Of a stretch of DNA of 64,000 nt, positions 3,357 to 63,781 are shown in pieces. Within the stretch, counting starts at the first letter, position 1. Every line of letters begins with the position of its first letter. A model generated the notes under the pieces. It searched no databases and was not told the origin of the DNA. It saw only the letters and a program-made list of their open reading frames with translations. Source of the DNA: a bacterium UBP1_UBA4783. Its GTDB lineage: Bacteria; Krumholzibacteriota; Krumholzibacteriia; Krumholzibacteriales; Krumholzibacteriaceae. Position numbers and translations under genes: made by a program. The stretch spans positions 32,213 to 96,212 of the forward strand of contig DHHB01000082.1 of NCBI GenBank assembly GCA_002403075.1, written 5' to 3'.

Positions 3357-3365
3357 ACAGCCGTA

Positions 3366-3405
3366 GAATAGTAGGAAGCCGGACGGGTCGATGTCAAGGG
3401 AAAAG
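3366..3405 (-). promoter_or_regulatory. Sigma70-type promoter on the minus strand: TTTTCCCTTGACA -35 block, 17-18 nt spacer, TACTAT -10. It would drive the tRNA(CAU)-tilS-hpt-ftsH unit.
   Basis: Reverse complement of 3366-3405 reads TTTTCCCTTGACA-N17/18-TACTAT. The predicted start site lies just upstream of the tRNA 5' end at 3356. Confidence 0.5.
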
Positions 3406-3503
3406 CTCGGAAGTGCCGTTCGGACAAGCCTCTTGCGCGCCGTCCGCGGTTCTGCTATAGATAAGAGGCTGTTTCTTACGACCGAACGGGAGGAGCCCGC
3501 AGG

Positions 3504-44456: not shown

Positions 44457-44487
44457 GGGCAGTCGCGATCTCTCGCCGGCGCCGCCG

Positions 44488-45444
44488 TCAGCGCCGTTCG
44501 AGGAGCCGGTTGTATTCCTGGAGCGCCTCGACGGTCCGTCCCGTTTCGGCGTAGAGACGCGCGAGGATCGTGCGCAGCGCGGCGTTATCCGGGTCCGCCT
44601 CGATCGCGAGGCGCATCTCCGCCACGGCGTCGTCGAGCAGCCGGTAGCTGAACAGCGCGCTTGCGCGAACGATACGGCGCGCCGATTCGCTCGGAGCGCG
44701 CTGAGCCTCCGCGGTCGCGAGCAGGGTGTCGAGGGATCGCTCCTCGGCGGCGGACAGCACCTCGAAGAAACCGGCCGGAGTTCTCACGGGCGGAACGCGA
44801 AGCGGGTCGGTCGTCTCGAGGGTCCAGGAGTAGATCGTGCCGGGTTCGAGGGGCGGCTCGCCGGCCGGATACTCCGCCGCGCTCGTTCCCGCGACGTCCG
44901 CTTGCCACCGAAGGCCCGATTCGTCGTAGAGCTTGAGGCGCAGCTCCGTCGACGGGTCGGCCGCGGACCATCGGAAGCGCGGATGTCCTCCGCGGACGGC
45001 CGTCCGGCACGGCGCCTCGAGGCGGATATCGTCCGTCGCCGCGCCCGAGCGGAGCGCGGCGAGCGTGCTCACGCCTTCGGCGTCCTTGAGCGTGAGAAAG
45101 CTCTGCACGGACGCGAACGTTTCGCCCTCCGCCGGCGCCGCGCGTCCCGGGACCGGTCCCCCCGCCGCCCGCACGACGAGACTGCTCGAGGCGCCGACCG
45201 TGATCCACGTGCCGTTTTGAAAATGAATCTCGGCTTCCGCTCCGGGACCGGTGCGGATTTCGTCCCCCGCGCGAAGGGAGAGGCCGTACGCGCCGGGCGC
45301 CGTCGTGCCGTCCGTACGCCGCACCGTGACCTCGCCCGTGCACGAGAGGAGGAGGGCGTCGGGCGGCTGCGTGCGGGCCTGCGAAACGGCAATCGTCGCC
45401 CCGATCGCGGCAATCATCACGAACGACGAAAGAATAGCTTTCAT
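44488..45444 (-). CDS. Secreted protein with a C-terminal TPR region; upstream partner of the kinase.
   Basis: Signal peptide MKAILSSFVMIAAIGATIAVSQA. C-terminus ...AEMRLAIEADPDNAALRTILARLYAETGRTVEALQEYNRLLE. Confidence 0.5.
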   Translation of the reverse strand: MKAILSSFVMIAAIGATIAVSQARTQPPDALLLSCTGEVTVRRTDGTTAPGAYGLSLRAGDEIRTGPGAEAEIHFQNGTWITVGASSSLVVRAAGGPVPGRAAPAEGETFASVQSFLTLKDAEGVSTLAALRSGAATDDIRLEAPCRTAVRGGHPRFRWSAADPSTELRLKLYDESGLRWQADVAGTSAAEYPAGEPPLEPGTIYSWTLETTDPLRVPPVRTPAGFFEVLSAAEERSLDTLLATAEAQRAPSESARRIVRASALFSYRLLDDAVAEMRLAIEADPDNAALRTILARLYAETGRTVEALQEYNRLLERR

Positions 45445-45618: not shown

Positions 45619-46668
45619 TCAGCGTTCCCTCCGCGCGCCGCCGCGGACGGCCGGGCCGTCGAGCCGGCGCACTTCCTCGGAGTACCGTTTCTGCATCGAG
45701 AGCAGCTTCGGATCGCCGTCGGTCTCGAGGGCGTCGGGGCAGCGGTTCGAAGCGGAGATCTCGAGCGAATCGGCGCCGAAGGTCACCGTCACCTCGGTGA
45801 AAAACTGCTCCTTGGCGCCCGTTTCGACGACGGCCGTGCGGCCCGCGCGTTCGAAACGCGTCGTCCGCCCCGTGCGGTGTCCGTTCAGGACGACGTCGAT
45901 CCCCGGCACCTCGCGGGCGAGCGCCACGCTCTCCTCCCAGCCGAGGTGGGAAATGGCGACGACGACGTGGCAGCCGTCCGCGCGGAGCCTCGCCGCCGAT
46001 TCGAGGGCGGCGAGTTTCGGGTCGATCGCGGCGTAGCGATTCGAGCCGTCCGCGAGGCCGCGGTGCCATGGGGGAGGAAACACGACGGCGAAAACGCCGA
46101 CGCGGAGCCGTCCGCGCGCGCCGGAAGGGGTCCGGACGCCGGGGAATTCCTTCACGATCTCGCCGGGAAGCGCGCGCTCGCGCGTGCGCCGGTCGAGGAG
46201 GTTCGCGGCGAGGAGCGGCGGCGCATGAGGTCCCGCGCGGGAGCGGAGCTCGTCGAGGCCGATGCGGAGCTCGCTTTCGCCGACGCCCACCGCGTCGTAC
46301 CCGAGCAGCCGCATCGAACGGAACAGGTAGCGGTCGTTCATCTCGCGGTGACGCACGTCGGCGCCGAAATAGAAATCGCCCGTATCGAGGAGGAGGGTCG
46401 GCCGTTCACGGCGCCGCGCGCCGACGAGGGAAGCCCACCGGGCCATCCCGCATTGGTCCCGCTTCCTTCAACCGCAGGGTTCTCGGTAGCCGGACAGATT
46501 GCTCGTGAAGAAGATGCCGAGCTCGGTGCCCGGAGCGCACGGCTCCGGGGCGCGATCCTGGCGGGCCATCCGCACGCGGAGCGGCACGTAGAGGGCGAGC
46601 AGCAGGAGAAGGACGACGGCGGCGGCGTTCCGGAACGCTGCGGCGCTACGGATTCTTGGTTTTTCCAT
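45619..46668 (-). pseudogene. Secreted 5'-nucleotidase/metallophosphoesterase-like protein with degenerate metal ligands. One in-frame TGA (complement of 46468-46470) splits it into ORFs 46468..46668 and 45619..46446 in the same frame. It is either a pseudogene or a Sec-containing protein.
   Basis: The N-terminal fragment has a signal peptide and ...IFFTSNLSGYREPCG, then TGA, then ...RKRDQCGMARW...TLLLDTGDFYFG...LLGYDAVGVGESEL. This parallels UshA, where the corresponding motifs are HTNDHHG and GNHEFD. The two fragments are in the same frame, separated only by TGA. Confidence 0.5.
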
Positions 46669-49600
46669 ATTTCTTGAGCTTCGAATAGACGGTCGGTTTC
46701 GAGATGCCGAGGAGCGCGGCGGCCTTCGTCTTGTCGCCGATCTTCTCGACCACCTTGCTCACGATCATCCCTTCCACGCGCGGAAGGATCGGATCGGCGG
46801 CCGACAGCTCGGTGCGTTCGACGAGCTCCTCGATCGTTTGCTCGAGGGTCGCGCGCTGTTCGGCGCGGGCGATCTCGCGCCGTTTCGCGATGGCGTCCGG
46901 CAGATCCTCGGGCAGGATCGTCTCGCGCCGCGCCGCGATGATCGTCCGGTTGACGATGTTCTCGAGTTCCCGCACGTTCCCCGGCCAGTCGTAGGCGACG
47001 AGGCGGGCCATCGCCTCGGGAGAGATCTTCTTCACGGGCATGCCGTAGAGACGGCAGTAGACGGCGAGGAAATGGAGGGCGAGCGGCTCGATGTCCTCGG
47101 CCCGCTCGCGGAGATCGGGAATGCGGATGGGAAACACGTTGATGCGGTAGTAGAGATCCTCGCGGAATCTTCCCTCGCGGACGAGGGCGAGGAGATCCTT
47201 GTTGGTGGCGGTGATGATCCGCACGTTCGTCGAGATCAAGTGCGAGCCGCCGACGCGGTAGAAGGTCCGGTTCTCGAGCACGTGGAGGAGCTTCGGCTGG
47301 AGCGCGAGCGGCATATCGCCGATCTCGTTCAGGAAGATCGTTCCGCCGTTCGCCGACTCGAAATGGCCGATCCGCAGCTTGTGGGCGCCGGTGAACGCGC
47401 CCCGCTCGTGGCCGAAGAGCTCGCTCTCGAGGAGCTCGGCTGATATCGCCGCGCAGTTGAGCGCCACGAACGGCTTTTCCGCGCGGGGGCTGCGGCAATG
47501 GATCGTTCTCGCGACGAGGTCCTTGCCGGTGCCGTTCGATCCCGTGAGCAGCACCGTGGTGTCCATGTCCCTGATGCCGTCGAGAAGCCCGTACAGGTGC
47601 CTCATCGGGGCGGAGGAGCCGATCACGTCCGGGAACGCCGCGCGCTTGCCGGGCCGCGCGGGCGGGGCGTTCGCCTCGATGCGCGATCGCTCGAACCCCT
47701 CGATCCGATCGGCGAGGAGCGCGCGTTCGAGGGCGAGCGCCGCTTCCTGGCAGAAAGCGACGAGCAGACTATGGTCGCCGTCGGCCGTTCGTTCTCCCCC
47801 CCGCGCGGAGTCGAGGTACAGGAACGCCGTCGCGTCGCCGCCGACGCGCAGCGGCACGCACAGGATGCGCGGGCGTTCCGCGAGAAACTCGGGCGGCACC
47901 TTGCCTTCGGGGAGCGTCGAACGCGTCGTGTCGAGGGGGTATCCGAGCCGCACGGCGACGGCGAGCACGGCCGCGACGCGCCGGTCGGCGAGCGTCCCCG
48001 AAGCGGGGAAGTCGCCGCTCGCGGCGGCGATCCGGAAGGCGTCCTTGCCGTCGGCCTTGCGGATGAGCGCCGCGCGCTCCATGCCGGTGATGCGGAGCGC
48101 CGTATCGACGACGAGGTTTTCGATTTCGGCCGTCCCCCTCGCCGAGCGCACCATCGCCGCGAGGCGGCAGAGCGCGTGGAAGCGGTCGGTATCCGATACG
48201 ATTTCGCCGCGGCACAGCGGCGAGCGCTTTTCGACGCTCTCCCGGAGGCGGCGCACCGGAAGCGGCACGTGCTCGCTTTCGCCGACTGCGGAGAGCGAGC
48301 GGAGGAGGTACTCGCGGGCGAGCGGCTCGTTCCCCTCGGCGAGCGAGAGCGATCCGATCTCGGCGGCGACGCTCGCCGCCGCGTTCGTTCGGCCGAGGAG
48401 CGAGAGCTCGAGGCTCCCGCTCTCGAGCTTGAACCGTCCTTCCTCGACCCGTCCCTGCGAAATGAGTATCCGCCCTTCGAGGATCGTGAGGAGCACCGCC
48501 TCGAGGCGCGAACCGATCCGCTGGTTCAGGGCGCGCGCTTCGGCGAGATGCTTCGCCGCCTCGGGCGCGTCCCCCGAGGCGAGGCGCAGCTCGCCGAGCT
48601 TCCGCAGCACGACGGCGCGCTCGCGGATCGATTTCGTCCGATCGCAGAGGTCGAGGTCGCGCTCGTAGTACGCCGCCGCCTTCTCGCCGTTCCCCTGGAG
48701 AAACTGGATCTCGCCCATCGTGCCCCACACCTCGGCGAGGAGCTGCTGGTTGCCGATCGTCTCGGCGAGGTGCGCGGCCGTGGCGCAGCTGCGCTCCGCG
48801 TCGCGGTACTTCTCCGTCTCGAGATACACGAGGGCTTGATTGAGAAGCGCCGCGGCGAGCCCGGGGAGGTTCTCGTGGCGCTTCTTGATCTCCATGCTCT
48901 TCGCGAAGCATTCGAGCGCCTCGGCGTACGCGCCGAGAGAACGGTACACGAGGCCGAGGTTGTTGTACGTCGCGGCGACGCCGATCTCGTCGCTGCAGTC
49001 CTCGCGGAGAGCGAGACAGCGCTTGTAGCAGAGGATCGCGTCCTCGTACTTGCTGCGGTTCCAGTTGATCGTTCCCATGAGGTTGTACGACTGGGCGATC
49101 TCCGCAGGATCCCTCTTCTCGTCGAGGAGCCGGTGCACGAGAAGACAGTGCTCCCACGAACGGTCGAACGCTCCGAGGCGGTAGTGGATCCAGGCGATGT
49201 CGTTGTAGAGCTTCGCGCGTTCCTGCGAGAGGAGCTCGTCGCCGTGCATCTCGAGCGCTTTCTCGAGGAGCTCCTGCGCCGCGGGAAACTCCCCCCGTTT
49301 TTCGAGGATCTCGCTCTCGCGGCGCACCGCTTCGACGGCGAGGTTGCGGAAACGGGCCGTCTCGGGCTCGCGGTCGATCTCCTCGCGGCAGCGGCGGTAG
49401 AAGGATTCCGCCGCCGAGGTGTTCCCCGTCAGCGCACAATGGGCGCCGAGATCGAGGAGGAGGGCGTAGCGCGCGTCGGCTGGGAGCGCGAGATCGAGAC
49501 CCTCCTCGAAATAGCTCTCGTGAAAGCAGCGCAGCGCCGCGAGCCGCTTGCGCCGCATGAAATGCTGCAGGATCTCGCGGCCGCGCAGCGCCGCTTCGGC

Positions 49601-51289
49601 GCGCGCGCCGCTCCGCACGAGGTGGACGTAGGAGCAGATCGCCGGCACGCCGCGACGTTCGTCGAGGAGCCGCGCGATATTCCGGTGGATCGACTCGAGC
49701 CGCTCGGCGGGAAGCGCCTCGATCGCCGCGCGGGCGATCGAACGTCCCGCCACGCGGTACAGCATGGCGAGGGCGCCGTTCGAGAGCGGCGAGACCCCCG
49801 CGCGCGTACGCACGAGACCGCGGGCCTCGAGGCGCCGGAGCGCGTCGAAGACGCTCTGCTCCTCCGGGGCGTAGACGGCGAGAATGAAGGAAAGCGGCGC
49901 TTCGAAATCGAACGCCGAGAGGAACGCGAGCACGGAGCGCTCCTCTCCGCCGAGCGAGTCGAGGAAGAGCCGGGCGCCCGCAGCCGGCGCCGCGCCGTTT
50001 TCCTCGATCGCCGCGATGCGGTCGAGCCGCTCGAACGCGAACGAACCCGCCGCCGTCCCTCCGGAGGCGCTCTCCGGAGCGATGCGATCGAGCAGCCGGC
50101 GGCGTTCCGCCGCGGAGAGCGGCGGCAGGGCCACCTCCCGGACGTCGACGCCGCGCTTCCCGATCTCCTCGCGTATGCCGTCCGCGAGCCGGGAGCCGCC
50201 GTCTTCGCCCACCGCGGCGACGGTGAGACGGCAGCGCTCCGCCGCCTGGCACAGGTAATCGATCACGCAGCATTCGAGGAGCGGTTCGAGGGCGTGGTCG
50301 TCGACGAGGGCGAAGTCGGCGCCGTCGACCGCCTCCTTTTCGGCGACGTCTTGAAAGATCGATTGGTCGCCGGCGATCGAGCCGCGCCGGTATCCCCATT
50401 CGTCGACGAGGATACGCTCGAGGCGCTCGAGAAAATGAGTTTTCCCCTCGCCGTCCGCTCCCCTGAGCAGGATGAGCGCGCGTTCGTCGTCGCGGGCCTT
50501 GAGGGCGGTCTGCTTCACCGCTCGAAGCGCGGCGGCGGGAGGATGGACGTTGACGGTCCGCGCCGGGAAGATCCGGTCCGGAGACACCGCCGTCTCCGCG
50601 AATGCGGCGAGCGCCTCGATCGCCGCTCGGTAGTCGCGGCCCCCTGTTTCCGGACCGAGCGCCTTGAGGGCGTCGGCGACGCGCTTGGCGCGCTCCGCTT
50701 CGCCGGATTCGAAGTGGCGGGCCGCCGTCGAAAGGAGCTCGGCCGCGGCGCGAAGGTCGACGTACGGCGTCTCCGGCGCCGCGCCCTCCCGCGCCCCGGA
50801 GCGGATGATCGAGAGCACCGGCCCCGGAATGAGATAGGCCGTCGGCAGGACGCCGGGCGCGTCGTTCGCCATGTACATCGATTCGAGGGAGAGGTTCGAA
50901 AAGGCGCATCCGTCGGCGAGGCACGCGAGCACGTAGGAGAGAAGGGCGCGCGTGTGCGCGAGCGCGCGGGCCGGCTGCATGAGAGAAAGCGCCTTGGTGA
51001 GCGGCGCGATCTCGACCCGCGGGACGAGGAAGGTGACCGCTCCGTTCGCCTGCTGCAGCGAAAGCGTCGGCGACGCGATCGCGCCGTGCCGCGTGAACAG
51101 GCGATCCCGCATCCGTAGATCGTCGATCGAAACGGAAAGGTTCGCGGGGATTTCGAGAGAGAAGAAGAAATACTCCTTCTCGCTCAGGCTGTCGCTGACG
51201 GAGCATCCGTGCCACGGCGGAAATTCACCGAGCGTCGTGCGGACGATATAGCGAGAATCGAGCGGGATTCGAGCCTTTTCGTTGTTCAT
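46646..51289 (-). CDS. Giant (1547 aa) sigma54-dependent transcriptional activator: N-terminal ~250-aa unknown domain, STAND/AAA_16-type P-loop NTPase, long TPR array, GAF-like region, sigma54-interaction AAA+ domain, Fis-type HTH.
   Basis: Walker A GADGEGKT and multiple TPR repeats. Sigma54 AAA+ motifs GSNGTGKD, the GAFTGA signature (ELFGHERGAFTGA), FLNEIGDMPL and PGNVRELEN. C-terminal HTH AAALLGISKPTVYSKLKKYG. Confidence 0.8.
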   Translation of the reverse strand: MNNEKARIPLDSRYIVRTTLGEFPPWHGCSVSDSLSEKEYFFFSLEIPANLSVSIDDLRMRDRLFTRHGAIASPTLSLQQANGAVTFLVPRVEIAPLTKALSLMQPARALAHTRALLSYVLACLADGCAFSNLSLESMYMANDAPGVLPTAYLIPGPVLSIIRSGAREGAAPETPYVDLRAAAELLSTAARHFESGEAERAKRVADALKALGPETGGRDYRAAIEALAAFAETAVSPDRIFPARTVNVHPPAAALRAVKQTALKARDDERALILLRGADGEGKTHFLERLERILVDEWGYRRGSIAGDQSIFQDVAEKEAVDGADFALVDDHALEPLLECCVIDYLCQAAERCRLTVAAVGEDGGSRLADGIREEIGKRGVDVREVALPPLSAAERRRLLDRIAPESASGGTAAGSFAFERLDRIAAIEENGAAPAAGARLFLDSLGGEERSVLAFLSAFDFEAPLSFILAVYAPEEQSVFDALRRLEARGLVRTRAGVSPLSNGALAMLYRVAGRSIARAAIEALPAERLESIHRNIARLLDERRGVPAICSYVHLVRSGARAEAALRGREILQHFMRRKRLAALRCFHESYFEEGLDLALPADARYALLLDLGAHCALTGNTSAAESFYRRCREEIDREPETARFRNLAVEAVRRESEILEKRGEFPAAQELLEKALEMHGDELLSQERAKLYNDIAWIHYRLGAFDRSWEHCLLVHRLLDEKRDPAEIAQSYNLMGTINWNRSKYEDAILCYKRCLALREDCSDEIGVAATYNNLGLVYRSLGAYAEALECFAKSMEIKKRHENLPGLAAALLNQALVYLETEKYRDAERSCATAAHLAETIGNQQLLAEVWGTMGEIQFLQGNGEKAAAYYERDLDLCDRTKSIRERAVVLRKLGELRLASGDAPEAAKHLAEARALNQRIGSRLEAVLLTILEGRILISQGRVEEGRFKLESGSLELSLLGRTNAAASVAAEIGSLSLAEGNEPLAREYLLRSLSAVGESEHVPLPVRRLRESVEKRSPLCRGEIVSDTDRFHALCRLAAMVRSARGTAEIENLVVDTALRITGMERAALIRKADGKDAFRIAAASGDFPASGTLADRRVAAVLAVAVRLGYPLDTTRSTLPEGKVPPEFLAERPRILCVPLRVGGDATAFLYLDSARGGERTADGDHSLLVAFCQEAALALERALLADRIEGFERSRIEANAPPARPGKRAAFPDVIGSSAPMRHLYGLLDGIRDMDTTVLLTGSNGTGKDLVARTIHCRSPRAEKPFVALNCAAISAELLESELFGHERGAFTGAHKLRIGHFESANGGTIFLNEIGDMPLALQPKLLHVLENRTFYRVGGSHLISTNVRIITATNKDLLALVREGRFREDLYYRINVFPIRIPDLRERAEDIEPLALHFLAVYCRLYGMPVKKISPEAMARLVAYDWPGNVRELENIVNRTIIAARRETILPEDLPDAIAKRREIARAEQRATLEQTIEELVERTELSAADPILPRVEGMIVSKVVEKIGDKTKAAALLGISKPTVYSKLKKYGKTKNP

Positions 51290-51380
51290 ATCGGCGCAAC
51301 CGTTAAGGAATTTGACCGGGTAAAATTACTTTACCGCATACGGCAAGGTGATTGCAAGAGAAAAATGGGGCGGCGGGGGA

Positions 51381-51725
51381 TCAGGGGATATAGAGCAGGC
51401 GCCCGCAGCTCTCGCAGGTCTGGAGCTCGACGCGGTTCGCCGACGAGAAGAACGACGTCGGAAGCTTCACGAAACAGCCGAGGCACCGGCTGCCGGAGAC
51501 GGGCAGAATGGCCACCGTGTAATGCTCGGCGAGCTTTTCGTAGCGGTTGAGGAGCGCCTTCGGAACCGAGGAGGCGAGCTTCGCGCGCGCGTCGAGGAGG
51601 ACCGACAGTCCGGTGAGCTTGAATCCGAGACCCTCGAGCTCCTTCGACGTGGCCTTGTCCTTGACCTCCTTGATCATGATGTCGAGGTCCTGGAGCGCGA
51701 TGAGGAGCCGGTGCTCGTCTTTCAA
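51381..51725 (-). CDS. C4 zinc-ribbon domain protein (COG1579-like, short form).
   Basis: Coiled-coil N-terminus and CLGCFVKL...CESCGRLL. Confidence 0.5.
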   Translation of the reverse strand: MKDEHRLLIALQDLDIMIKEVKDKATSKELEGLGFKLTGLSVLLDARAKLASSVPKALLNRYEKLAEHYTVAILPVSGSRCLGCFVKLPTSFFSSANRVELQTCESCGRLLYIP

Positions 51726-52189
51726 TCGTCTTTCCCTTCGAAGATGCCGACGAGCGTCGAGAAATCGGCGGCCTCGTTGAGCGCCCTGAGCTTCGCCGGT
51801 TTCTGGATGAGCCCGATGAGCTCGCTGAGGATCGCGAGATAGGTTTCAGATCCCTTGTCCGACGGCGCGAGTATGAGGAAGAAGACGTTCGTCGGCTTGC
51901 CGTCGAGCGCCTCGAAATCGACTCCCGACGAGGAGCGCGCGAACAACACCGTAAGCTGCTTGATGGCGAGGGAGCGGCCGTGGGGAAACGCGACGCCGTT
52001 TCCGAGCCCCGTGCTGCCGAGGTTCTCGCGGTTCTTCAACATGTCGAGGATGAACCGTTCGTCCGAGATGCGTTTCTGGAGAGCGAGGTGATGTACCATC
52101 TCCGTGAGCGCGCTGATCTTCTTGCGCGACCGGAGATGAAATATGCAAAGATCCTCTTCGAAGAACGAAATCAGCTTGGAAGCTTCCAT
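51722..52189 (-). CDS. ptsN: PTS EIIA(Ntr)-type nitrogen regulatory protein.
   Basis: EIIA(Fru/Mtl/Ntr) fold with phosphorylatable His in GLGNGVAFPHGR. Length is 155 aa. Confidence 0.75.
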   Translation of the reverse strand: MEASKLISFFEEDLCIFHLRSRKKISALTEMVHHLALQKRISDERFILDMLKNRENLGSTGLGNGVAFPHGRSLAIKQLTVLFARSSSGVDFEALDGKPTNVFFLILAPSDKGSETYLAILSELIGLIQKPAKLRALNEAADFSTLVGIFEGKDD

Positions 52190-52316
52190 ATGCGCCCCAA
52201 TATATCACCCGCCTCGCACGCATGTATAGCAATTTTATCGTTCGGCGACAACATATTTTTTGCTATCTTCCGGCGTGCACGGTCGAACGCAACGAACGGC
52301 GGAGAAAACGGTTGCC

Positions 52317-53458: not shown

Positions 53459-54568
53459 ATGAGGAAGCGGATCGAACGGGCGCTCAAACGCCGTTTCGCC
53501 CGGTGCGCCGCGCTTTTTCTCGACCGACGCCGGATCACCCCCGCGGAGCTCGAAAGGATCGAGATATCGCGCCTTCTCGTCATCCGCCAGCACAACCAGA
53601 TGGGGGATATGCTGCTCGCCGTGCCGGCGTTCCGGGGTCTTCGCCGCCGTTTCCCCGGGGCGCGGATATCGCTCGTCGCCGCTCCCGTCAACGCGGCGGC
53701 CGCGGCGCGGATCCCGTATATCGACGAGGTGCTGACGTACGCGAAACGGCGAAACCGGTGGAACCCGTTCGCGCTCCCGGCGTTCGTCGCGGGCCTTCGC
53801 AGCCGGCGCTTCGACGCGGTCATCGTGCTCAACACCGTGTCCTTCTCGATCACGAGCATGCTGCTCGCCGCGGCGAGCGGCGCGCGCGTCCGTCTCGGGT
53901 CGACGAGCCGGCCGTTCGGGCACGATCTTTCCGAGAGGTTCTATCATCTCGAGTTGCCGCTCCCTCCGCCGGAGGAGCTCGCCGCGATGCACGAAAGCCG
54001 GCACAACCTCTATCCGCTCGCACCGATCGGCGTCCGGGAGGACGACCTTCGATCGATCGTCGTTCCGACGGCGGAGGAGGAGCGGGACGCCGTTCGATTC
54101 GTCGCGGCGTCCGTCGGCGACGGGACGCCGTTCGTCGTTGTGCATCCGGGCGCGGGCAAGCGTGGGAATATCTGGCCTCCCGAGCGTTTCGCCGAGGTCG
54201 TCTCGGCGCTTCACGATCGCCGCGGCGCGGGAGCGATCGCCGTGCGCGGCCCGGTCGACGGCCCCGCCGTCGACGCCTTTCTCCGCTCGTGCAGGGTACG
54301 TCCGGCGGTCGTCTCGTCGCCCGGCATCGGATTCCTCGCGAGCCTCATGAAGCTCGCGTCATGCGTCCTCTGCAACGATACCGGGGTCATGCACGTCGCC
54401 GGCGCCGCGGGGGCGCGATGCGTCGCCGTGTTCGGGCCGACGGATCCGCGCCGCTGGAAGCCCCCGAACGACACGGTCGTCGCCGTGCGCGCCCGGGACG
54501 GAAGGGTCGAGTCAGTCGAAGCCGGCGAGGTTCTCGAGGCGGTCGAGCGCTTACTGGCTCTCCGATAG
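53459..54568 (+). CDS. Glycosyltransferase family 9 (LPS heptosyltransferase-like).
   Basis: GT9 pattern with C-terminal ...NDTGVMHVAGAAGARCVAVFGPTDPRRW. An AT-rich tract lies immediately upstream. Confidence 0.75.
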   Translation: MRKRIERALKRRFARCAALFLDRRRITPAELERIEISRLLVIRQHNQMGDMLLAVPAFRGLRRRFPGARISLVAAPVNAAAAARIPYIDEVLTYAKRRNRWNPFALPAFVAGLRSRRFDAVIVLNTVSFSITSMLLAAASGARVRLGSTSRPFGHDLSERFYHLELPLPPPEELAAMHESRHNLYPLAPIGVREDDLRSIVVPTAEEERDAVRFVAASVGDGTPFVVVHPGAGKRGNIWPPERFAEVVSALHDRRGAGAIAVRGPVDGPAVDAFLRSCRVRPAVVSSPGIGFLASLMKLASCVLCNDTGVMHVAGAAGARCVAVFGPTDPRRWKPPNDTVVAVRARDGRVESVEAGEVLEAVERLLALR

Positions 54569-56395
54569 GGGAACGAGGCGGATGGCGAGCGTGAGCGGCT
54601 CTCCGTCGGGCACGTTCACGCCGGCGGACCACGAACGGTATCCCGGCTTTTTCAGCTCCACGCGGTGCGGACCGGGCGCGAGAGGGACGGGCTGAGCGAG
54701 CGGGAGCTCGCCCCGGTACGCGCCGTCGACGAAGAGGCGGGCGCCGCGCTCGGATTTCACGACGAGCGATCCGACGATCTCGGCGAGCACGATGCGGCGG
54801 CGCGAGAGCTCGCCTGCGGCGACGCGCACCGTCTCCACGTAATCGCGGTATCCATCCCGCCGGACGACGATCTCGTGCGGTCCGGCCGGCAGCTCGAGCA
54901 TCGATATCCTTCCGGTCGCGGTCTGCGGTTCGCCGTCGACGATGATCGAGGCGGCGGGTTCTACCGAGACGTCGAGGAATCCCGTTTGCGCGCGCGGCGG
55001 GGGCGCCTCGCGCGAGGGGCGCGCATCAGCGGGGAGCGGCGCCGCGGCCGCCGGTTTTCCGCCGGAGGGGGCCGCGACGGGAAACGGGATGTCCACGCCG
55101 CGGTCGGCGTCGCGCTCGACGTCGCGCGCGGCGCCGTCCGCGGAATCGGCTGAAACGCCGGAAAGGGCCGAAGCGTCCGCCGCGGAGCCGGTCCCGATAT
55201 CCATGAGGGAATCGGCCGCGTACGTCCCTCGCGGCGTTCCGGCCTCGATGACCGCGCCGGCCGCGGTCTCGACCGGGACCGTCTCGCCTATCGGCGTCAT
55301 CGTGACGCCGGGCAGCGGCTCGCCGATCGAGGCCGGGATCGCCTCGCGTCGAGGCTGAGCCGGATCGGGGAAGCCCGCGCGGATCGATTGCGGCAGCGCG
55401 CCGAGGAAGCCCGTGTGCACGGCGGCGAGGCCGAGCACTGCGGCGGCTCCCGCGGCGATCGCCGCCGCGCGGACGGGGGAGCTCGCGCGGCGCTTTCCGG
55501 GGCGGCGCAGGACGCGGCGCGGGGCGGCGTCCTCTCCGCACGCGAGAAGGCGCAGCCGCGCGCGGGCGGAGGCGATCGTCTCGGGATCGAGCGCGGCCTC
55601 GATCGCGGAGGCCATCTCGGCGGCGTCCCGGAAGCGCTTCGCCGGATCGAGCTCGAGCGCCCTCATAACGACGGCGTCCGTATCGGGGCGCACGTCTCCT
55701 CTCAGGCGTTTCGGCCCCGCCGAGACGCCGTTCAGTATCTTCCGTATCACCGCCGCGTAGGTCTCTCCGAAAAAGGGCTGCGCGCCGGTGAGCGCTTCGT
55801 AGCAGATCGTGCCGAGAGAGAACAGATCGCTCCGGCCGTCGATCGCCTCGCCGGCCGCCTGCTCGGGAGACATGTAGAGCGGCGTGCCGAGCAGCGTGGA
55901 GGCCAGCGTTTGCTGCGCTTCGGGACGGTGGAGCTTCGCGAGGCCGAAGTCCGTTATGACGACCCGTCCGTCGCGTCCGATCATGACGTTCGCGGGCTTG
56001 ATGTCGCGATGGACGACGCCGCGCCGGTGGGCGTGGTCGAGCCCGAGGCAGATCTCGCGGGCGACGAGCAGCGCGAGATCGTCTCCGAGGACCGGTCTCG
56101 CGGCAAGAACCTCCTTGAGACTCGGCCCGTCGACGTACTCCATGACGATGTAGTGGCCGTCGTCGTCTCGTCCGAAATCGATGATGCGCACGATGTTCGC
56201 GTGGTCGAGCCGCGCTGCGGCCTTCGCCTCGGTCGCGAACCGCTCGGCGAAGCCGGGCTCGGCGGCGAGGTGGGCGTGCAGACGCTTGACGACGACGGGT
56301 CGGTCGAGGGAGACCTGCACGGCCTTGAAGAGCGCGGCCGTGCCGCCCGTCGCGAGCGCGCGTTCGATCCGGTACGTTTCGTCGATCTTATTCAT
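54551..56395 (-). CDS. Ser/Thr protein kinase with a TM segment and C-terminal PEGA-like beta-domains.
   Basis: VHRDIKPANV, DFG and SPE motifs. Ends with ...GPHEIVVRRDGYRDY and ...GPHRVELKKPGYRSW repeats. The start at MNKIDE overlaps the phosphatase stop (ATGA). Confidence 0.8.
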   Translation of the reverse strand: MNKIDETYRIERALATGGTAALFKAVQVSLDRPVVVKRLHAHLAAEPGFAERFATEAKAAARLDHANIVRIIDFGRDDDGHYIVMEYVDGPSLKEVLAARPVLGDDLALLVAREICLGLDHAHRRGVVHRDIKPANVMIGRDGRVVITDFGLAKLHRPEAQQTLASTLLGTPLYMSPEQAAGEAIDGRSDLFSLGTICYEALTGAQPFFGETYAAVIRKILNGVSAGPKRLRGDVRPDTDAVVMRALELDPAKRFRDAAEMASAIEAALDPETIASARARLRLLACGEDAAPRRVLRRPGKRRASSPVRAAAIAAGAAAVLGLAAVHTGFLGALPQSIRAGFPDPAQPRREAIPASIGEPLPGVTMTPIGETVPVETAAGAVIEAGTPRGTYAADSLMDIGTGSAADASALSGVSADSADGAARDVERDADRGVDIPFPVAAPSGGKPAAAAPLPADARPSREAPPPRAQTGFLDVSVEPAASIIVDGEPQTATGRISMLELPAGPHEIVVRRDGYRDYVETVRVAAGELSRRRIVLAEIVGSLVVKSERGARLFVDGAYRGELPLAQPVPLAPGPHRVELKKPGYRSWSAGVNVPDGEPLTLAIRLVPLSESQ

Positions 56396-57120
56396 CGCGC
56401 CGTCGCGAGCCGCGCCGCGAGCGATTCCGGCAGGCCCGCGCTCCGTATCTTTTCCTGCGCGCCCCGGACGTCGTACGGGATGCGCCTGATGACGATGGTG
56501 CCCTTGTGCTCGTCGAGCAGAGCGAAGCTCGCCGCGGCGACGCCGTCCCGCGGCTGTCCGACGCTTCCCACGTTGACGAGATATCGCGATCCGGGAGCGA
56601 CCGCGGCGAACGGAGAACGCAGGACGCGCGACCCCCGCGCGTCGTCGCGCTCGATGATGCCGGGCACGTGGGTATGTCCGATGAAGACGAAACGTTCCGT
56701 CGTTCCCCCGAGGATCGCGTTCGCCTGGTTGAGCGTATAGACGTATTCCCAGCCCATCGGCGCCGTCGGCGAGGCGTGCGCGAAAACGCAATCGCCGTGG
56801 CGGCGGATCGTGTCGTACTCTCCGAGGAGCTCGAGGCTCGACAGATCGATCGCGCGGCATGTCCACAGGATCGCCCGCTCGGCCGCCTCGCCGAACGCGT
56901 CGGTGTCGATGAGCCCGGCCGCCGCGGCGTCGTGGTTGCCGGCGATCCGGATGGCGGCCCGCTCCTGCACGAGCGCGACGCACTCGTTCGGATTGGCTCC
57001 GTACCCGACGACGTCGCCGAGCGAGACGACGACGTCCGGGCGGAGCCGTTCCGCCTCCTCGAGGACCCGCTCGAGGGCCTCGACGTTTCCGTGCACGTCC
57101 GAGAATACGAGGTATCTCAT
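56392..57120 (-). CDS. Metallophosphoesterase (calcineurin-like); likely the kinase's partner protein phosphatase.
   Basis: FSDVHGN, LGDVVGYG and AGNHD motifs. Length is 242 aa. It is translationally coupled to the kinase. Confidence 0.75.
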   Translation of the reverse strand: MRYLVFSDVHGNVEALERVLEEAERLRPDVVVSLGDVVGYGANPNECVALVQERAAIRIAGNHDAAAAGLIDTDAFGEAAERAILWTCRAIDLSSLELLGEYDTIRRHGDCVFAHASPTAPMGWEYVYTLNQANAILGGTTERFVFIGHTHVPGIIERDDARGSRVLRSPFAAVAPGSRYLVNVGSVGQPRDGVAAASFALLDEHKGTIVIRRIPYDVRGAQEKIRSAGLPESLAARLATAR

Positions 57121-57122
57121 GG

Positions 57123-58460
57123 CTATTCCTTGAAGACGAACTCTTCGGCGCCGATCGCGATGAGATCGTCGCGCTCGAGGATCTTCTCGTCGGTTTCCTC
57201 GCCGTTCACCCTCACGCGGGCGCCTCCGCGCCTCATGAGCACCCAGTCGTCTCCCGCCCGCACGATCTCGATCCGCACGCGCGGGGCGAAGAGCCCGCCG
57301 ACGCGTATATCCGCGTCTCTCGCCCGCCCGATCACGGTCCGTTCCTTCGCGAGCGGGTACTCCTCTTGCGCCGTTTTCCGGAAAAGCCGCGGATCGGGCG
57401 GCGGATCCTCTCCGGCGCCCGATCCGGGACGGGGAGGCCCGGCCGCGCGGAACTGCGGAACGACGATCGTCTGGTCGAGCTCGCCGGCGGATGCGCCCTC
57501 GAGCGTCGGAATTTGAAACAGGATGTCGTACTTGCCGACCGATATGACGTCTCCGTCCGCGAGGCGGGCCGAGGTGACGGGGGCCCCGTTCAGCATCGTG
57601 CCGTTCCTGCTCGCGAGATCCCTCACGACGTATCCGTCGCCGCTCGCGGCGACGGCGGCGTGCGAGCGGGAGACGCTCAGATTGTCGATCACGACGTCGT
57701 TGTCGGGAAGGCGTCCGATGGTGACTTCCTGCCCGGAGAACGGGTACGTCCGCAGCGGTCTTCCCTTGAGCCGCACGACGAGCCTGGGCGGCTGGCTCAG
57801 GAAGAACGACGCGATCGATCCCGCGTAGCCGGCGGGGACCGCCCGCACGTCCTCCGCGTGGGTGACGGAGAGGTCGGTGAAGAGGCAGAGCTCGAGCGGA
57901 TGCTTCGCCGAAATCGTGTAGACGGCGACGAGAAAATCCTCGCGGGCGGCCGCGCGTCCGGCCGCCTCGAAGCGGCCGCGGCGGCAGAAGACGGGGGCGC
58001 CGGCCTGGCAGCGGAGCACGATGAGGTCCGCGCGGTCGCGCGCGGTGAGGACGGCGCTCGCGCGGTCCGTTTCCGTGCGGTCGAGGAGCTCGTCGAGATC
58101 GACGAGCGTCGAAGCGACGCGCAGCTCGGGTTTCTTCTGTCCCCATACGAGGAGCGAATGGAAGAGGGCGAGGTCCGTGCGGTACGCGACGATCTGCGGG
58201 AACTGCATGCGTCGCAGGCGCGAGAAGAACTCGCGCAACGGCACGGCGCGCACCCGGTCGCCGTCGTGAGCCCCGGCCCAGTAGATCTGTCCCTCGTTGA
58301 GGAACAGGAAATACTGGATGTCCCCGCTCGAGACCTCGATCACGACCGGCGCCGCGCGGCTCGCCGCGAGCTGCCCGCGGCAGAGTGCGTCGAAATCCTC
58401 CGGGTCGAGATCGCGCGGCTCGAGCAGGACCGATCCGTATGGAATTTGCAGCCGAACCAT
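57123..58460 (-). CDS. Protein with an N-terminal unknown domain and two C-terminal FHA domains.
   Basis: Two FHA cores (VTIGRLPDNDVVIDNLSVSRSHAAV...NGTMLNGAPV ; TVIGRARDADIRV...RVNGEE). Confidence 0.7.
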   Translation of the reverse strand: MVRLQIPYGSVLLEPRDLDPEDFDALCRGQLAASRAAPVVIEVSSGDIQYFLFLNEGQIYWAGAHDGDRVRAVPLREFFSRLRRMQFPQIVAYRTDLALFHSLLVWGQKKPELRVASTLVDLDELLDRTETDRASAVLTARDRADLIVLRCQAGAPVFCRRGRFEAAGRAAAREDFLVAVYTISAKHPLELCLFTDLSVTHAEDVRAVPAGYAGSIASFFLSQPPRLVVRLKGRPLRTYPFSGQEVTIGRLPDNDVVIDNLSVSRSHAAVAASGDGYVVRDLASRNGTMLNGAPVTSARLADGDVISVGKYDILFQIPTLEGASAGELDQTIVVPQFRAAGPPRPGSGAGEDPPPDPRLFRKTAQEEYPLAKERTVIGRARDADIRVGGLFAPRVRIEIVRAGDDWVLMRRGGARVRVNGEETDEKILERDDLIAIGAEEFVFKE

Positions 58461-58485
58461 CGTGCGGTCTCCCAGCCGGCGGGCG

Positions 58486-59682
58486 CTACTTCACCTCTGC
58501 GTGAAAGCGCTTGAGGTTGCGCTTCGCCTTCTCGTTCGCCGGATCGATCTCGAGGGCCCGTTTCCAGGCGCCGATCGCGTCCTCGATCCGCTTCATCTTG
58601 TAGTAGGCGTTGCCGAGGTTCGTGTAGGCGGAGGAGTTGTTCGCGCTCCGGCCGATCGCCTCGTTGTACATCTCGATCGCTTCGTCGTACGAGCCGAGAC
58701 GGTAGAATACGTAGCCGAGGTTGTTGTACGCGGCCGCGAGCTCCGGTTCGATTTCGATCGCCTTCCGGAAGGCCTCGGTCGCCCGTTTCGCGTCGTTCGT
58801 CTCCGTGTAGGCGAGGCCGAGGTTGTTGTACGCCTCGGTCATCGCCGGTTCGATCTCGACCGCCTTGCGGAACAGCTCGAGAGCCTTTTCGTACTGGCCG
58901 TTGTGGTACGCCATGACGCCGGCGTTGTTGTGCCGCCGCGCTTCCGCGGTTCGGCGCTTGCGGCTCTCCTCCTCGATGCTCCGCTTCTGGTTCTCGACGA
59001 CCTGCATGACCCCCTCGTGGCTGCGGGTCAGCTCGTCGACGAGCCGCCGGTTCTCGGCGAGGCCCGTCTCGAGCCCCGAGGCGTTCGTCGATATGGCGTC
59101 CTTCCACGAGGCGATCTCTCCGCGGAACGCGGCGACGCTCTCCGCGCTCGATTCGATCTTCCTCTCGATCTCCTCGCTCCGCGCGTCGAGCGTGAGGGAA
59201 AGGGCCTCGATCGCCGTGTCCCGCTCCCCGGCCGTCGAACGAACGAGCTCTCGCAGCTCCTCGAATCCGCGCGAGACGCCCGTCGAGAGCTCCTCGAGGC
59301 GCGCGGCGTGCTTCGTTTCAAGCTCCGCGAACAGGTCGCGGATCGTATCCGCGGACCCGTCCTGCGCCTGCGGCCGTTCCGACAGGACGCGGTCGAGGCG
59401 ACACTCGTTCGCCGCGTCGTCGTGGAACCGGCAGAGATCTCCGAGACACTCGACGCGCCCGCGGTAGGCCTTGGCGATGAAACGCACGGCCGTTCCGGAT
59501 TCGGCGGCTTCGTCGAGCGGCGTCTCGTCGGGCGGCTTCGACTCCGGATTGATGAAGAGCAGATCCTTCGTCGCTTCCGGCGCCGGACCCTCGCGGGGGG
59601 GCTCGACGTCGTCGAGCTCGCGAACGAGAACGTTCGCGTCCTCGAGCATGCATGTCTGCGTGACGAGCGGGCAGATCTTCAT
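58486..59682 (-). CDS. Cys-cluster/coiled-coil/TPR protein.
   Basis: Start MKICPLVTQTC after RBS AAAGGAGA. N-terminal C..C...C..C pattern, a central coiled-coil and four or more C-terminal TPR repeats. Confidence 0.65.
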   Translation of the reverse strand: MKICPLVTQTCMLEDANVLVRELDDVEPPREGPAPEATKDLLFINPESKPPDETPLDEAAESGTAVRFIAKAYRGRVECLGDLCRFHDDAANECRLDRVLSERPQAQDGSADTIRDLFAELETKHAARLEELSTGVSRGFEELRELVRSTAGERDTAIEALSLTLDARSEEIERKIESSAESVAAFRGEIASWKDAISTNASGLETGLAENRRLVDELTRSHEGVMQVVENQKRSIEEESRKRRTAEARRHNNAGVMAYHNGQYEKALELFRKAVEIEPAMTEAYNNLGLAYTETNDAKRATEAFRKAIEIEPELAAAYNNLGYVFYRLGSYDEAIEMYNEAIGRSANNSSAYTNLGNAYYKMKRIEDAIGAWKRALEIDPANEKAKRNLKRFHAEVK

Positions 59683-59705
59683 GATCGTTCTCCTTTGCGT
59701 GTCGT

Positions 59706-62700
59706 TCAAATCGATTCCGTTTTTTCGATCGTGTATGCCGGCTCCCCGCACGATTCGGCGAGGAACGCGGCGTAGTTGCGCGTCGCGCGCTCGCGACTGT
59801 CGTCCGTTCCGTCGAGAGCCGCGGCCGCCGCGAATATCGCCGCGGCGCGGCCGCTGTCCCCCGCGCGCTCGCGCGCGGTTCCCTCGAGGTAGAGCGCGGC
59901 CCGTTTCGCCCCGGGAGAGATCGCGTCGTCCCCGGCCGCGCCCGCGAGGGCGGCGCACGCGAGGAACGGGCGATCCATGGCGAGGTAGACCCGGCCGAGG
60001 AGCATCGCACGCTCGGTTCTCGGCGGCGCGGCGTTCGTGATCGCCTCGAGCGCCTCGGCGCCTCTGCCCCGCTCGAGGAGCAGCTCGACGAGAAGCTCGA
60101 CGCCGTCCGCGGACTTTCCCGGTTCGGCCGCGCGGGAGGAGAGAGAGGCGATCGCGCGGTCCCCCCACGCGAGATACGATCGTTCGATGCGCTCGTAGAC
60201 GGCAGCCCGGTCCGGCGCCGCGGCGAGCGCCTCGTCGAATATGCGGGAGGCGCGTTCGGAGCGTCCCTCCCCGCGCAGGATCTCGGCGAGCTCGATCGCG
60301 AGATCGAGCGAGTCGGGTCCGCCGAGAACGTTTCTGCCGCGCTCGATGAAGCGCTCCGCCTCGTCGATCCGGCCCGCCGCCGCGAGACGCTGCGCGCCGA
60401 GCGAGAAATGCTCCCGTCGCGGCGCGCGGCCGGCGAGCGCGGCGAGGCGCGGAACGATATCGTCCACGAGGGCGGCGCCGGGATCGGCGACGGCGCCGAT
60501 AGCGGCGAACGCCTCGTCGAACCGGCCGGCGGCGACGAGGCAGTCGGCGGCGAGAAGCGATTTCGCCGCGGCGAGGCCGTCCGGCCACGGGCGCCGGTCG
60601 AGCACGGCGACGATCTCCCCCGCGAGCGAGGCGTCTCGTTCGAGCGACGCGCGAAGGCGCGCGAGGGCTTTCTCGTCCTCCCCGGCGCGCGCCATGAGCG
60701 CGCCGTAGCGGAGAAGAAAGCCGCCGTCCTCGCCGTGCGCGGCGAGGAACGGCTCGACGACCGCCGCGAGCGCCGCCGGATCGCCGGTTTCGTCGGCGAG
60801 GAGACGCGAGAGGGCCTCGCGCGAGCGGGCCGGATCGCCGGCGTCGAGATGCATCCGGGCGAGCATCGCGTTCGCGTCGATCTGGGACGGAGAGTCGGCG
60901 ACGATGCCCTGGAGGACGTCCTTCACGGCCGGGCCGGCGCCCGCGTCGCGCTGGAGCAGCGAGGCGAGGAGCGCCGCAGTCTCCGCGTACCGCTCTTGGC
61001 GCGCGAGTATGCGCGCGTGGAGAAGTCCGAGATCCGCGTCTCCGGGCGAGGTCGATCTCGCCCGCTCGAGCGACGCGGACAGGTCGGCGAGCGATTCGAC
61101 GGAGCCGCTCTCGGCGGACGCGAAGAGGCGGAGCGCCTCCGCGCGGCGTCCCTCGAGCCAGAGGATCTCGCCGAGGAACGCCGCGATTCTCCACGGCTCC
61201 ACGGCGAGCGGCAGGATCAATTCGAGCGTGCGCTTCACGGGACCGCTGTGGTCCGTGGAGAGATCGAGGCATCGCCTGAACGAATCGACGGCCTCGCGTT
61301 CGCGCCCGAGCACGGCGAGCGACCGGCCGAGCAGGAGGTGCGAGCGCGGTTCGCGCGGATCCCGCTCGACGATCGCGCGGAGCTCGCTTTCGATTCCTCG
61401 GGCGTCGGGCCGGTCGGCCCCGAGGGCGGCCTCGAGGCAGCGGAGCGCCTCTTCGAACGCCCCTTCCGCCGAGGCGATGCGCGCGCCGTGGAGATGGAGC
61501 CCAGCGGCCGCCTGCGGCGGCAGGGACGCGAGAGCGCGCTTCAGGATCTCCTTCGCGAGGCCGGCGCGGCGCATCGAGAGCGCCGTCGAGAGCATCGCGT
61601 CCCAGATCGCCGCGTTTCCCGGATCGCGCTCGACGAGCTTGTCGAAGCGCTGCATGATGTCGCGTATCTGGCCGGGATCGAGCTCGAGGGTGCGGCCGAG
61701 ATGCCGCGCCGCCTCGACGAACGATTCCATATCGAGATGGAGGTGATAAAGAGCGAGGTGCAGCATCGCGCTGCCGCCGAGGCGCGCGGCGGCGCGTCCG
61801 TATATGTCGATGAGGCTCCGGCGGAGCCCCTCGTCGAACATCATGAGCTGGTCGAACTCGAACACCGCCCGTTCGATCTCGCCGCGATAGAGGTGGCCGG
61901 TGGCGCGAACGATCCTGAGCGGCTGAGAAAGCTCCTCGTCGGCGGCCATAGCGTCGAGCAGGTCGGCGACGAGACGCCAGCGCCCGTCGTCGTCAGCGGC
62001 GAGATCGCGGAGCTCGGCGGCGAGCGACTCGTGATCCTCCCGGTTCTCGCGGCAGAACGCGGCGACGTGCGGAAGCGCCTCCCCGATATTCCCGCTGCGG
62101 AGCGCGATGTCGACCGCGGCGACGACGCCGGGGAGCGTGACGCCGCACCGGTTCATGATCTCTCCGGCGAGCCGCAAAAGCTCGTCCTCCGGGAGTCCGC
62201 CGGTCCTGCGGAGAAGTCCGAGCGCCTCCTCGGCGCTTTCGCGGTCCCCGAGGCGCGCGCGCAGCTCGGCGAGCAGCATGACGAGCTTCGGATCGCGCTC
62301 GCGCGGCGGCGCGACGAGCGCCGAGACGGCCTCGACGATGCCGGGGATCGCGGTCGCGTCCGCGTCCGCGGCGAGCCGCGCGGCGCGCACGGCGTCATCG
62401 ACGCGCCCTCCCTTCGCGTAGAGTCGCGCGAGCAGCGTTTCTCCCGGGGCGCTCGGCGCCGTCGATTCGATCCGCTCGAGCCACGCGACGATCGCCTCCG
62501 CGCGGGCGGGATCGCGCTCGAGCGATTCCTCGAGCGCCCCGACCGCGTCCTTCATGCGGCCGAGGGACGCGGCGGCTTCGGCGTATGCGAAGGCGACCCC
62601 GCCGAGCGAGAAGAGATCCGCCGGCAGGATGGTGAGCCGCGAAACCGTCCGGCGGCAGCGTTCGAGCCGGTCGGCGGGAGGATCGCCGCCGGCCGCCGGA

Positions 62701-63569: not shown

Positions 63570-63781
63570 AACGACTCCGGCTTGGGTTGAGGTTACGCCC
63601 GAGCTCTGCGAATAACGTACCATTCGGCCGGCGCGCCCCGAGCTTCTTTAATCGTTGAAATTTCGGGGGGTTAGATGTAAAGTATTCTCGCAGGGGCGGC
63701 GTAAGCCCATGATGCCGTTGCAATTTGCGACGACCGGGCACCCGTGCCGCCATGCCGCGGCGGCGCTTCGGAGGGCGAACC

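Follow-up and report, generated by a model that had tools for sequence, protein, structure and literature searches.

The switch of a sigma-54 enhancer-binding protein (EBP) is usually a receiver, GAF, PAS, V4R or PRD domain. This report concerns a locus of the Krumholzibacteriota bacterium UBP1_UBA4783 that encodes an EBP of unusual architecture together with a stand-alone EIIA protein of the phosphotransferase system (PTS) and a small zinc-ribbon protein; the locus lies in a 64,000-nucleotide stretch of contig DHHB01000082.1 (assembly GCA_002403075.1, positions 32,213 to 96,212), hereafter the window. Among described EBPs, NifA, NorR and FhlA share with the window protein the order GAF domain, sigma-54 AAA+ domain with GAFTGA motif and Fis-type helix-turn-helix (HTH) over the C-terminal ~500 residues, whereas the window protein has ~1,000 extra N-terminal residues and an Asn in its Walker B motif and misses all equivalog cutoffs. 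The GAF domain of NorR is a repressor of its AAA+ domain (PMC2941729).

The extra N-terminal residues recall other regulators. PknK-like kinases (kinase, STAND/AAA_16, TPR) and AfsR-like proteins (SARP, STAND, TPR) share the order of kinase(-like) domain, P-loop nucleotide-binding module (NOD) and TPR region, but the PknK-like kinases keep the HRD and DFG motifs and lack a GAF or sigma-54 module, while in the window protein all catalytic residues are replaced. In MalT the output is a LuxR HTH acting on the sigma-70 holoenzyme, and a kinase-like domain and GAF are absent, whereas here a second, AAA+ ATPase forms the output and acts on sigma-54. Kinase-sigma-54 fusions are reportedly found in myxobacteria; no description of a STAND- or pseudokinase-containing EBP was found in the searchable literature, and database names of the proteins are generic (e.g., "sigma 54-interacting transcriptional regulator").

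The two smaller proteins also belong to families with ties to sigma-54. PtsN, a stand-alone EIIA, takes part in the control of potassium, phosphate and the stringent response in Proteobacteria, to give some examples of its roles. FlgZ (HP0958) binds RpoN and blocks its turnover, for which its zinc-ribbon cysteines are required (PMC3372290), and CT398 (CdsZ) binds RpoN and forms complexes with RpoN and core RNA polymerase, the contact being mapped to its N-terminal coiled coil (PMC5947703).

We regard it as somewhat probable that the window holds a sigma-54 control locus specific to the phylum Krumholzibacteriota, with the EIIA/zinc-ribbon pair, a pseudokinase-STAND EBP and a conserved sigma-54 promoter, joined in the syntenic block of related genomes by a small RNA (sRNA). 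The preliminary description of this DNA had placed the EIIA and zinc-ribbon genes on the same strand as, and 5' of, a 1547-residue activator, and the coordinates and the minus strand of the three open reading frames (ORFs) were verified. Their GC content at third codon positions (0.81–0.90) is typical of real genes in a genome of ~68% GC.

The first ~250 residues of the EBP, left as an unknown domain in that description, can now be identified as a pseudokinase of kinase fold. Fold comparison of a structural model showed a bilobal kinase fold, and the domain is assigned as a pseudokinase because every catalytic residue is replaced: the Gly-rich loop position reads GEFPPW, the Lys of VAIK is F43, the Asp of HRD is N132, the catalytic-loop Asn is S137 and the Asp of DFG is P149. 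These replacements are invariant among orthologues, a motif like ILPxAYLLP reappears in distant relatives, and no Pkinase Pfam match was obtained on the EBP. The GADGEGKT P-loop that follows had been attributed to a STAND NTPase. The motif is present, and in the model the P-loop domain leads into a helical domain and then a winged helix, a STAND-like fold; in the window protein no STAND or AAA_16 Pfam model matched this P-loop (the sole AAA_16 match was the sigma-54 AAA+ domain), Pfam and NCBIfam gave no match on residues 1–650, and PDB sequence searches with residues 1–650 and with the NOD profile returned nothing significant. nSTAND3 matched three of six orthologues weakly (E 3.4e-4) and exceeded its cutoff of 27.2 in the relatives P0044 (31.7 bits) and P0056 (30.0 bits), so that the predicted STAND assignment rests on the fold together with these matches. 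As in STAND proteins, a C-terminal repeat sensor follows: TPR_12 (102 bits), TPR_MalT (47 bits) and other TPR families match residues ~655–1000, bearing out the long TPR array described before, and the modelled part of the helical arm and TPR region, which reaches residue 660, is all-helical. An anti-phage (Avs-like) reading of the STAND region was rejected, PADLOC giving no STAND match and a generic TPR match only.

The C-terminal third of the earlier domain assignment proved largely sound. GAF and GAF_2 fall under the Pfam cutoff in the window protein (weak, residues 1054–1188), yet GAF_3 matches six of six orthologues (best E 1.2e-10) and the NorR and FhlA NCBIfam alignments begin inside this region, which upholds the GAF-like label. 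Sigma54_activat (PF00158) scores 225 bits over residues 1222–1388 (model positions 1–167 of 168), the Walker A motif is GSNGTGKD, GAFTGA occupies residues 1297–1302 (GSFTSA in P0006 and GSFTGA in P0029), and HTH_8 scores 27.4 bits (cutoff 22). The AAA+ domain aligns end to end with ZraR, NtrC, NifA, FleQ and PspF, with E-values against solved structures from 4e-76 (ZraR) to 4e-72 (NifA). "Canonical" does not fit the module in full, its Walker B motif reading N-E and not D-E.

The architecture is both correctly ordered in the preliminary description and unusual. Among 5.8 billion clusters, the N-terminal 1210 residues retrieved six full-length proteins (52–100% identity, ~1540–1552 residues), every one of them from a single candidate phylum, the remaining matches being through TPR alone; a profile search of 1.84 billion representatives yielded four full-length proteins and fragments, as well as five distant relatives of ~1500 residues that match only profile positions ~350–660, and a profile search built from these five gave no match. 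Farther out, the NOD/TPR region matches SARP-STAND-TPR regulators and active Ser/Thr kinase-STAND-TPR proteins, the next-best being P0061, P0062, P0008, P0011, P0019 and P0009, which are of this kind. Among species-representative genomes, a scan found 13 loci, nine in metagenome-assembled genomes of Candidatus Krumholzibacteriota (UBP1) and four others with the same synteny. In 15 of 15 related loci GT9 and rsgA lie on one strand and EIIA-zinc-ribbon-EBP on the other, at 33–78% identity in the EBP N-terminal region; the three-gene order is kept where this identity is 22–36%, and the deep relatives P0042 and P0056 have the same context, while the genes 3' of the EBP vary between loci. In P0053 (a cluster including HZL83978.1, Candidatus Krumholzibacteria) both STAND Walker motifs are degenerate (EAIGQSS; LTERP) and the remaining architecture is kept; this protein may be a deep orthologue, or else a paralogue that no longer binds nucleotide.

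The preliminary description reported no -24/-12 element nearby and concluded that the targets of the activator are elsewhere. A conserved sigma-54-type element does occur in the window, ~12 kb from the EBP locus and 38 nt 5' of the ATG of an operon headed by two TPR-protein genes, and it has the form TGGTAYG-N3-TTCGCW in 12 of 13 orthologous loci, whose TPR proteins are 41–68% identical. It is invariant in five loci, its exact motif is unique in the window, and it is the only GG-N10-GC site there that is both intergenic and correctly oriented. A second motif, T[CT]GCAwAwTGCAA, stands at a fixed ~108–111 nt 5' of the -24 element in orthologous loci and occurs once in the window, where chance would give 0.06 occurrences. 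Between them lies an AT-rich element that resembles WATCAANNNNTTR and may be an IHF site; the sequence around the three elements is not conserved. Judged by their arrangement, the putative upstream site, bend and -24/-12 element have the classical sigma-54 layout, and their presence in the same syntenic block contradicts both earlier statements. The EBP may act on this promoter, which is a candidate target. Two genes separate the end of the operon from the EIIA gene; a single TPR-protein sequence retrieved no relative when metagenomes were scanned with it. Neither the EIIA nor the EBP gene has the upstream-site motif 5' of it, and there is therefore no sign of autoregulation.

A second sigma-54-type promoter lies just beyond position 64000 in the genome of the window. 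Here a canonical element, TGGTAYG-N4-TTGCW, precedes a hairpin RNA of ~75 nt with a 33-nt invariant core, which sits inside a GCUGCGAG...CUCGCAGC hairpin with a U-tract at the end. The sRNA was located in contigs L017 (306–400), L018 (236–330), L019 (298–392), L020 (275–370) and L023–L053, an exact-match scan of metagenomes having supplied 31 further copies. The promoter stands at a fixed 38–39 nt before the core in 35 of 35 copies, the flanks vary, and in every copy the sRNA gene and queE converge within the same syntenic block. A related TTGCAA-N-GCAA motif is found ~158 nt 5' of the sRNA promoter, similar to the motif 5' of the TPR-operon promoter. Rfam 15 contains no matching family, and the RNA is a candidate sigma-54-dependent sRNA. 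Its organization resembles that of the EBP-activated sRNAs of LuxO-Qrr and GlrR-GlmY, short hairpin RNAs with a U-tract terminator that are transcribed directly from a -24/-12 promoter; unlike those, the present sRNA is a candidate without an Rfam match or an assigned activator, and it lies just outside the window. No rpoN was present among the window ORFs scanned; the conserved -24/-12 promoters of the TPR operon and of the 35 sRNA loci nevertheless imply that the lineage possesses a working sigma-54. Three GGGAA-like repeats spaced ~10–11 nt apart (e.g., GGGGAACAACGGGGAATCACAGGGA) are also conserved ~80–110 nt 5' of the sRNA -24 element in L017–L053 and may be sites of another regulator.

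The EIIA protein belongs to the PTS_EIIA_2 family (PF00359, 97 bits), with its phospho-His, His70 in GNGVAFPH, invariant across 15 orthologues and 70–94% identity to the window protein across related loci. It scores 76.8 with the PtsN model TIGR01419 (cutoff 138.7) and higher, 101.5, with the FruA-IIA model (cutoff 103.5, NCBIfam); since it is under both cutoffs, "PtsN-like" appears to be the safest label, and the name EIIA(Ntr) previously given to it holds at the family level, by fold family and phospho-His, and not by the PtsN threshold. EI-Ntr, NPr and a cognate EIIB/C were absent from the window ORFs scanned. With PtsN of the proteobacterial rpoN operon it shares the EIIA_2 fold and phospho-His, a stand-alone state with no EIIB/C nearby and a genomic tie to the sigma-54 system (PMC13104625). 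The proteobacterial gene has the neighbours rpoN-hpf-rapZ-npr, whereas the window gene, from a non-proteobacterial phylum, stands beside an EBP and a FlgZ-like gene, and its product is under the PtsN cutoff and better on FruA-IIA.

The zinc-ribbon ORF begins with a TTG that overlaps the EIIA stop by 4 nt; the overlapping non-ATG start is kept throughout the related loci and suggests translational coupling of the pair. The protein matches Zn_ribbon_9/DUF164 (PF02591, 30.6 bits, cutoff 29.1) and is 66–93% identical to the window copy across related loci, with both CxxC pairs (four Cys) invariant. Its only significant PDB sequence matches are CT398 (4ilo) and HP0958 (3na7), in alignments covering the C-terminal ~70 residues (residues ~160–235 of those proteins). 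By sequence it is a half-length homologue of the FlgZ/CdsZ (DUF164) family: the C4 zinc ribbon with two CxxC pairs and a helix in front are shared, but FlgZ and CdsZ have ~250 residues against 114 here, only ~75 residues precede the ribbon where those proteins have a coiled-coil hairpin of ~170 residues, and the CdsZ model of NCBIfam gives a score of 21 (cutoff 275). The usual neighbours of DUF164 genes are NIF3 and rpoD/dnaG, and their known contexts do not include an EIIA gene (PMC3372290). In one deep relative a NIF3/DUF34 gene lies directly 3' of the EBP (L022:10584–11348). NIF3 is a classical neighbour of flgZ/DUF164 genes and a fusion partner in Wolinella.

Several observations weigh against a control locus that works as proposed, the first of which concern the EBP and its promoter. 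The structural models were built from six sequences. Both Walker motifs of the STAND module are intact in the window protein, but some orthologues have R, T or Q for the Walker A Lys; the nucleotide site is thus unevenly constrained, and part of the family may do without nucleotide-driven switching. In the TPR operon the -12 element reads TCGC where the consensus is TTGC. Other EBPs may exist in these genomes, and the pairing of EBP and promoter is a candidate one. In the AAA+ domain, Walker B is FLNEIG, with N1321 in place of Asp ahead of E1322 (codon 47326–47328), and the hhhhDE signature of EBPs is thereby lost. The Asn is common to the Krumholzibacteriia orthologues checked (P0001–P0006, P0027 and P0029), whereas the aligned solved EBPs and the deep relative P0042 have FLDEIG, and deep relatives show DE or DD. 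For the D107A variant of PspF, Vmax falls from 39.5 to 0.23 per min, a loss of ATPase activity of ~170-fold (PMC3419264), and strong activator ATPase activity is accordingly not assured here.

These Walker B data are the basis for viewing the protein as a crippled AAA+ ATPase, a slow or "trapped" binder of sigma-54 (repressor, anti-activator or scaffold) in which the STAND NTPase is the sole real nucleotide switch. We consider this improbable, for there is no variation in Walker A, GAFTGA (two relatives with variants aside), E1322 or the R-finger region (RFREDLYYR), the rest of the domain is under strong purifying selection as expected of an active motor, and nearby conserved sigma-54 promoters require an activator; Asp to Asn is moreover a conservative change, and the PspF figure, from a set of highly ATPase-defective Walker B variants, is for an Ala substitution.

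The remaining objections concern the link between the EIIA/zinc-ribbon pair and the EBP. The whole ~17-kb block from the que operon to the EBP is syntenic, including the unrelated and equally conserved rsgA and GT9, for which reason adjacency is not specific evidence and is weak as an argument for coupling. A conserved sigma-70-type promoter lies in the gap of 91–170 bp between the zinc-ribbon and EBP genes: a cTTGnnn...GTAAAGTAwTTTwAmC block, with AATTTTA(A)CC (AATTTTAACC) following TAAAGT, is found in 16 of 16 loci while the remaining spacer is not conserved, and because of it the EBP gene can, as far as the alignment indicates, be transcribed independently of the pair. The zinc-ribbon protein also lacks most of the coiled coil, which is the RpoN-binding part of CT398 (PMC5947703); for this half-length protein sigma-54 binding is therefore plausible, not assured. 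These findings fit the alternative that general synteny alone makes the genes neighbours, the EIIA pair having an unrelated role and the EBP being run by its own sensors, as does the background that many PTS-Ntr targets are unrelated to sigma-54 (PMC13104625) and that DUF164 proteins occur in bacteria without RpoN, and also beside rpoD/dnaG (PMC3372290). Such a coincidence has to account for the adjoining on one strand of three families with separate ties to sigma-54 (EBPs, FlgZ/CdsZ, and ptsN through its place in rpoN operons), in an order that outlasts near-undetectable similarity in the EBP N-terminal region while the genes 3' of the EBP vary; we rate it as doubtful.

The preliminary description had suggested that carbon/nitrogen phosphorelay status gates a sigma-54 regulon; taken literally, phosphorylated EIIA would pass phosphate to the N-terminal region of the EBP or gate it directly, in the manner of LevR. 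The PTS-controlled EBPs LevR and DhaR provide a precedent, and the conserved adjacency agrees with it. Direct phosphotransfer is unlikely because the EBP carries no PRD, EIIA or EIIB domain (Pfam), nor another known PTS phospho-acceptor; its N-domain is a pseudokinase, and its N-terminal region is 22–25% identical across the wider family against 70–94% for EIIA, which is unexpected of a dedicated docking or phospho-acceptor surface. We regard this literal model as very improbable. Functional coupling of EIIA to the EBP is an inference, and the kinship of the zinc-ribbon protein with FlgZ/CdsZ offers another possible route, from EIIA through that protein to sigma-54.

For the favoured sigma-54 control locus the following mechanism can be proposed. 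The EBP would work like MalT or AfsR grafted on a NifA/NorR-type core: the TPR array and/or the pseudokinase would read a ligand or protein partner, the signal would make the STAND NOD exchange its nucleotide and oligomerise, and oligomerisation would relieve GAF-mediated repression and nucleate the AAA+ hexamer, which would bind the T[CT]GCAA-repeat upstream site and remodel the sigma-54 holoenzyme at the neighbouring promoter(s). The EIIA/zinc-ribbon pair would most likely report the PTS phosphorylation state to the sigma-54 system, acting on sigma-54, as the FlgZ/CdsZ analogy would have it, or else through protein contact with the EBP, and not by phosphotransfer to the EBP. A more ambitious version, which we offer as a tentative possibility, is a self-contained sigma-54 island in which the STAND switch, set through the pseudokinase and TPR array, replaces phosphorylation as the trigger of an AAA+ domain with Asn Walker B, EIIA acts through the mini-FlgZ protein on sigma-54 or the EBP, and the outputs are the kinase/FHA/phosphatase operon and the sRNA. 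The pseudokinase and that adjacent operon hint at a feedback loop, though this is speculation.

Table 1. Features of the sigma-54 locus in the window (positions in the window; residues are those of the EBP).
Feature	Position	Strand	Basis or remark
EBP gene, 1547 aa	46646..51289	(-)	ORF + Pfam
Pseudokinase domain, residues ~12-235	50585..51256	(-)	kinase fold, catalytic residues replaced
STAND-like NOD (nucleotide-binding, helical, winged-helix domains), residues ~250-526	49712..50542	(-)	fold
STAND Walker A GADGEGKT, residues 277-284	50438-50461	(-)	motif
STAND Walker B FALVDD	50297-50314	(-)	motif
Helical arm + TPR sensor array, residues ~528-1010	48260..49708	(-)	TPR families
GAF domain, residues ~1035-1190	47720..48187	(-)	orthologue matches
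Sigma-54 AAA+ domain with lid, residues 1222-1477	46859..47626	(-)	Sigma54_activat, AAA_lid_14
Fis-type HTH_8, residues 1502-1541	46667..46786	(-)	Pfam
Sigma-70-type promoter of EBP gene: TTGCAA (51352-51357), 18-nt spacer, TAAAGT (51328-51333)	51328..51357	(-)	alignment
Mini FlgZ/CdsZ-type (DUF164) zinc-ribbon protein, 114 aa	51381..51725	(-)	PF02591
Stand-alone EIIA, fructose/mannitol/Ntr family, 155 aa	51722..52189	(-)	PF00359
Conserved sigma-70-type promoter region 5' of EIIA gene (TTGTCG...TGCTATACA and TGATATATT)	52199..52260	(-)	intergenic alignment
Five-gene operon 3' of sigma-54 promoter, tightly spaced or overlapping	54551..63569	(-)	Pfam, orthologous contigs
Ser/Thr kinase-PEGA, 614 aa	54551-56395	(-)	operon gene 5
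Metallophosphatase, 242 aa	56392-57120	(-)	operon gene 4
FHA protein, 445 aa	57123-58460	(-)	operon gene 3
TPR protein, 398 aa	58486-59682	(-)	operon gene 2
TPR protein, 1287 aa	59706-63569	(-)	operon gene 1
Sigma-54-type -24/-12 promoter TGGTACGTTATTCGCA (TGGTACG-N4-TCGCA)	63607..63622	(-)	weighted GG-N10-GC scan
IHF-like AT-rich element TTTCAACGATTAAAG (TTTATCAACGATTAAAG in relatives), between upstream site and -24/-12	63646..63660	(-)	alignments
Candidate upstream activator site TCGCAAATTGCAA	63718..63730	(-)	conserved at constant spacing

Two candidates in the gap between the zinc-ribbon and EBP genes were rejected: a terminator-like hairpin, the stem of which is not conserved while the promoter-like hexamers are, and the top-scoring -24/-12-like site of the window (51341–51356, plus strand), which is the reverse strand of the EBP promoter and points antisense into the zinc-ribbon gene.

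The neighbouring genes offered some further observations. Directly 3' of the EBP, and overlapping its stop by 23 nt, lies a 349-codon frame (45619–46668, minus strand) with an in-frame TGA (46468–46470) that is kept in nine orthologous loci within the invariant context YREPCG-TGA-[KR]K..QCGMARWAS. A hairpin, GGGAUGGCCC-GGU-GGGCUUCCC (46428–46449), 18 nt 3' of the TGA, is conserved with invariant synonymous sites and resembles a bacterial SECIS element; the gene is a candidate for a new membrane-anchored selenoprotein, and the joined 349-codon protein has no Pfam match. Farther 3' (42831–45444, minus strand) are a second Ser/Thr kinase with C-terminal TPRs (541 residues) and a 318-residue TPR_19 protein, whose gene is conserved in position in some loci (L004 and L009). 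Elsewhere in the window a tRNA-Met gene (3281–3356, minus strand) lies inside a mechanically listed ORF of 931 residues (1857–4652), which is for that reason over-extended, the real TilS start being downstream of the tRNA.

With a pseudokinase-STAND-TPR assembly, the logic of NLR, Apaf-1 and MalT, placed before an AAA+ motor, the EBP would hold two oligomerising NTPases in one polypeptide and lends itself to asking whether AAA+ ring formation can be gated by assembly of a STAND module. Although the phylum is uncultured, the sRNA and the conserved promoter with its upstream site are DNA and RNA reagents for tests in vitro. Why proteobacterial ptsN genes accompany rpoN has long been a puzzle, to which the locus adds a second, phylogenetically independent genomic link between EIIA-Ntr-like proteins and the sigma-54 machinery, with a FlgZ-like protein as plausible adaptor. 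Should the self-contained island prove true, it would represent a new class of EBP control and would tie PTS-Ntr-like proteins to sigma-54 independently, outside the Proteobacteria.

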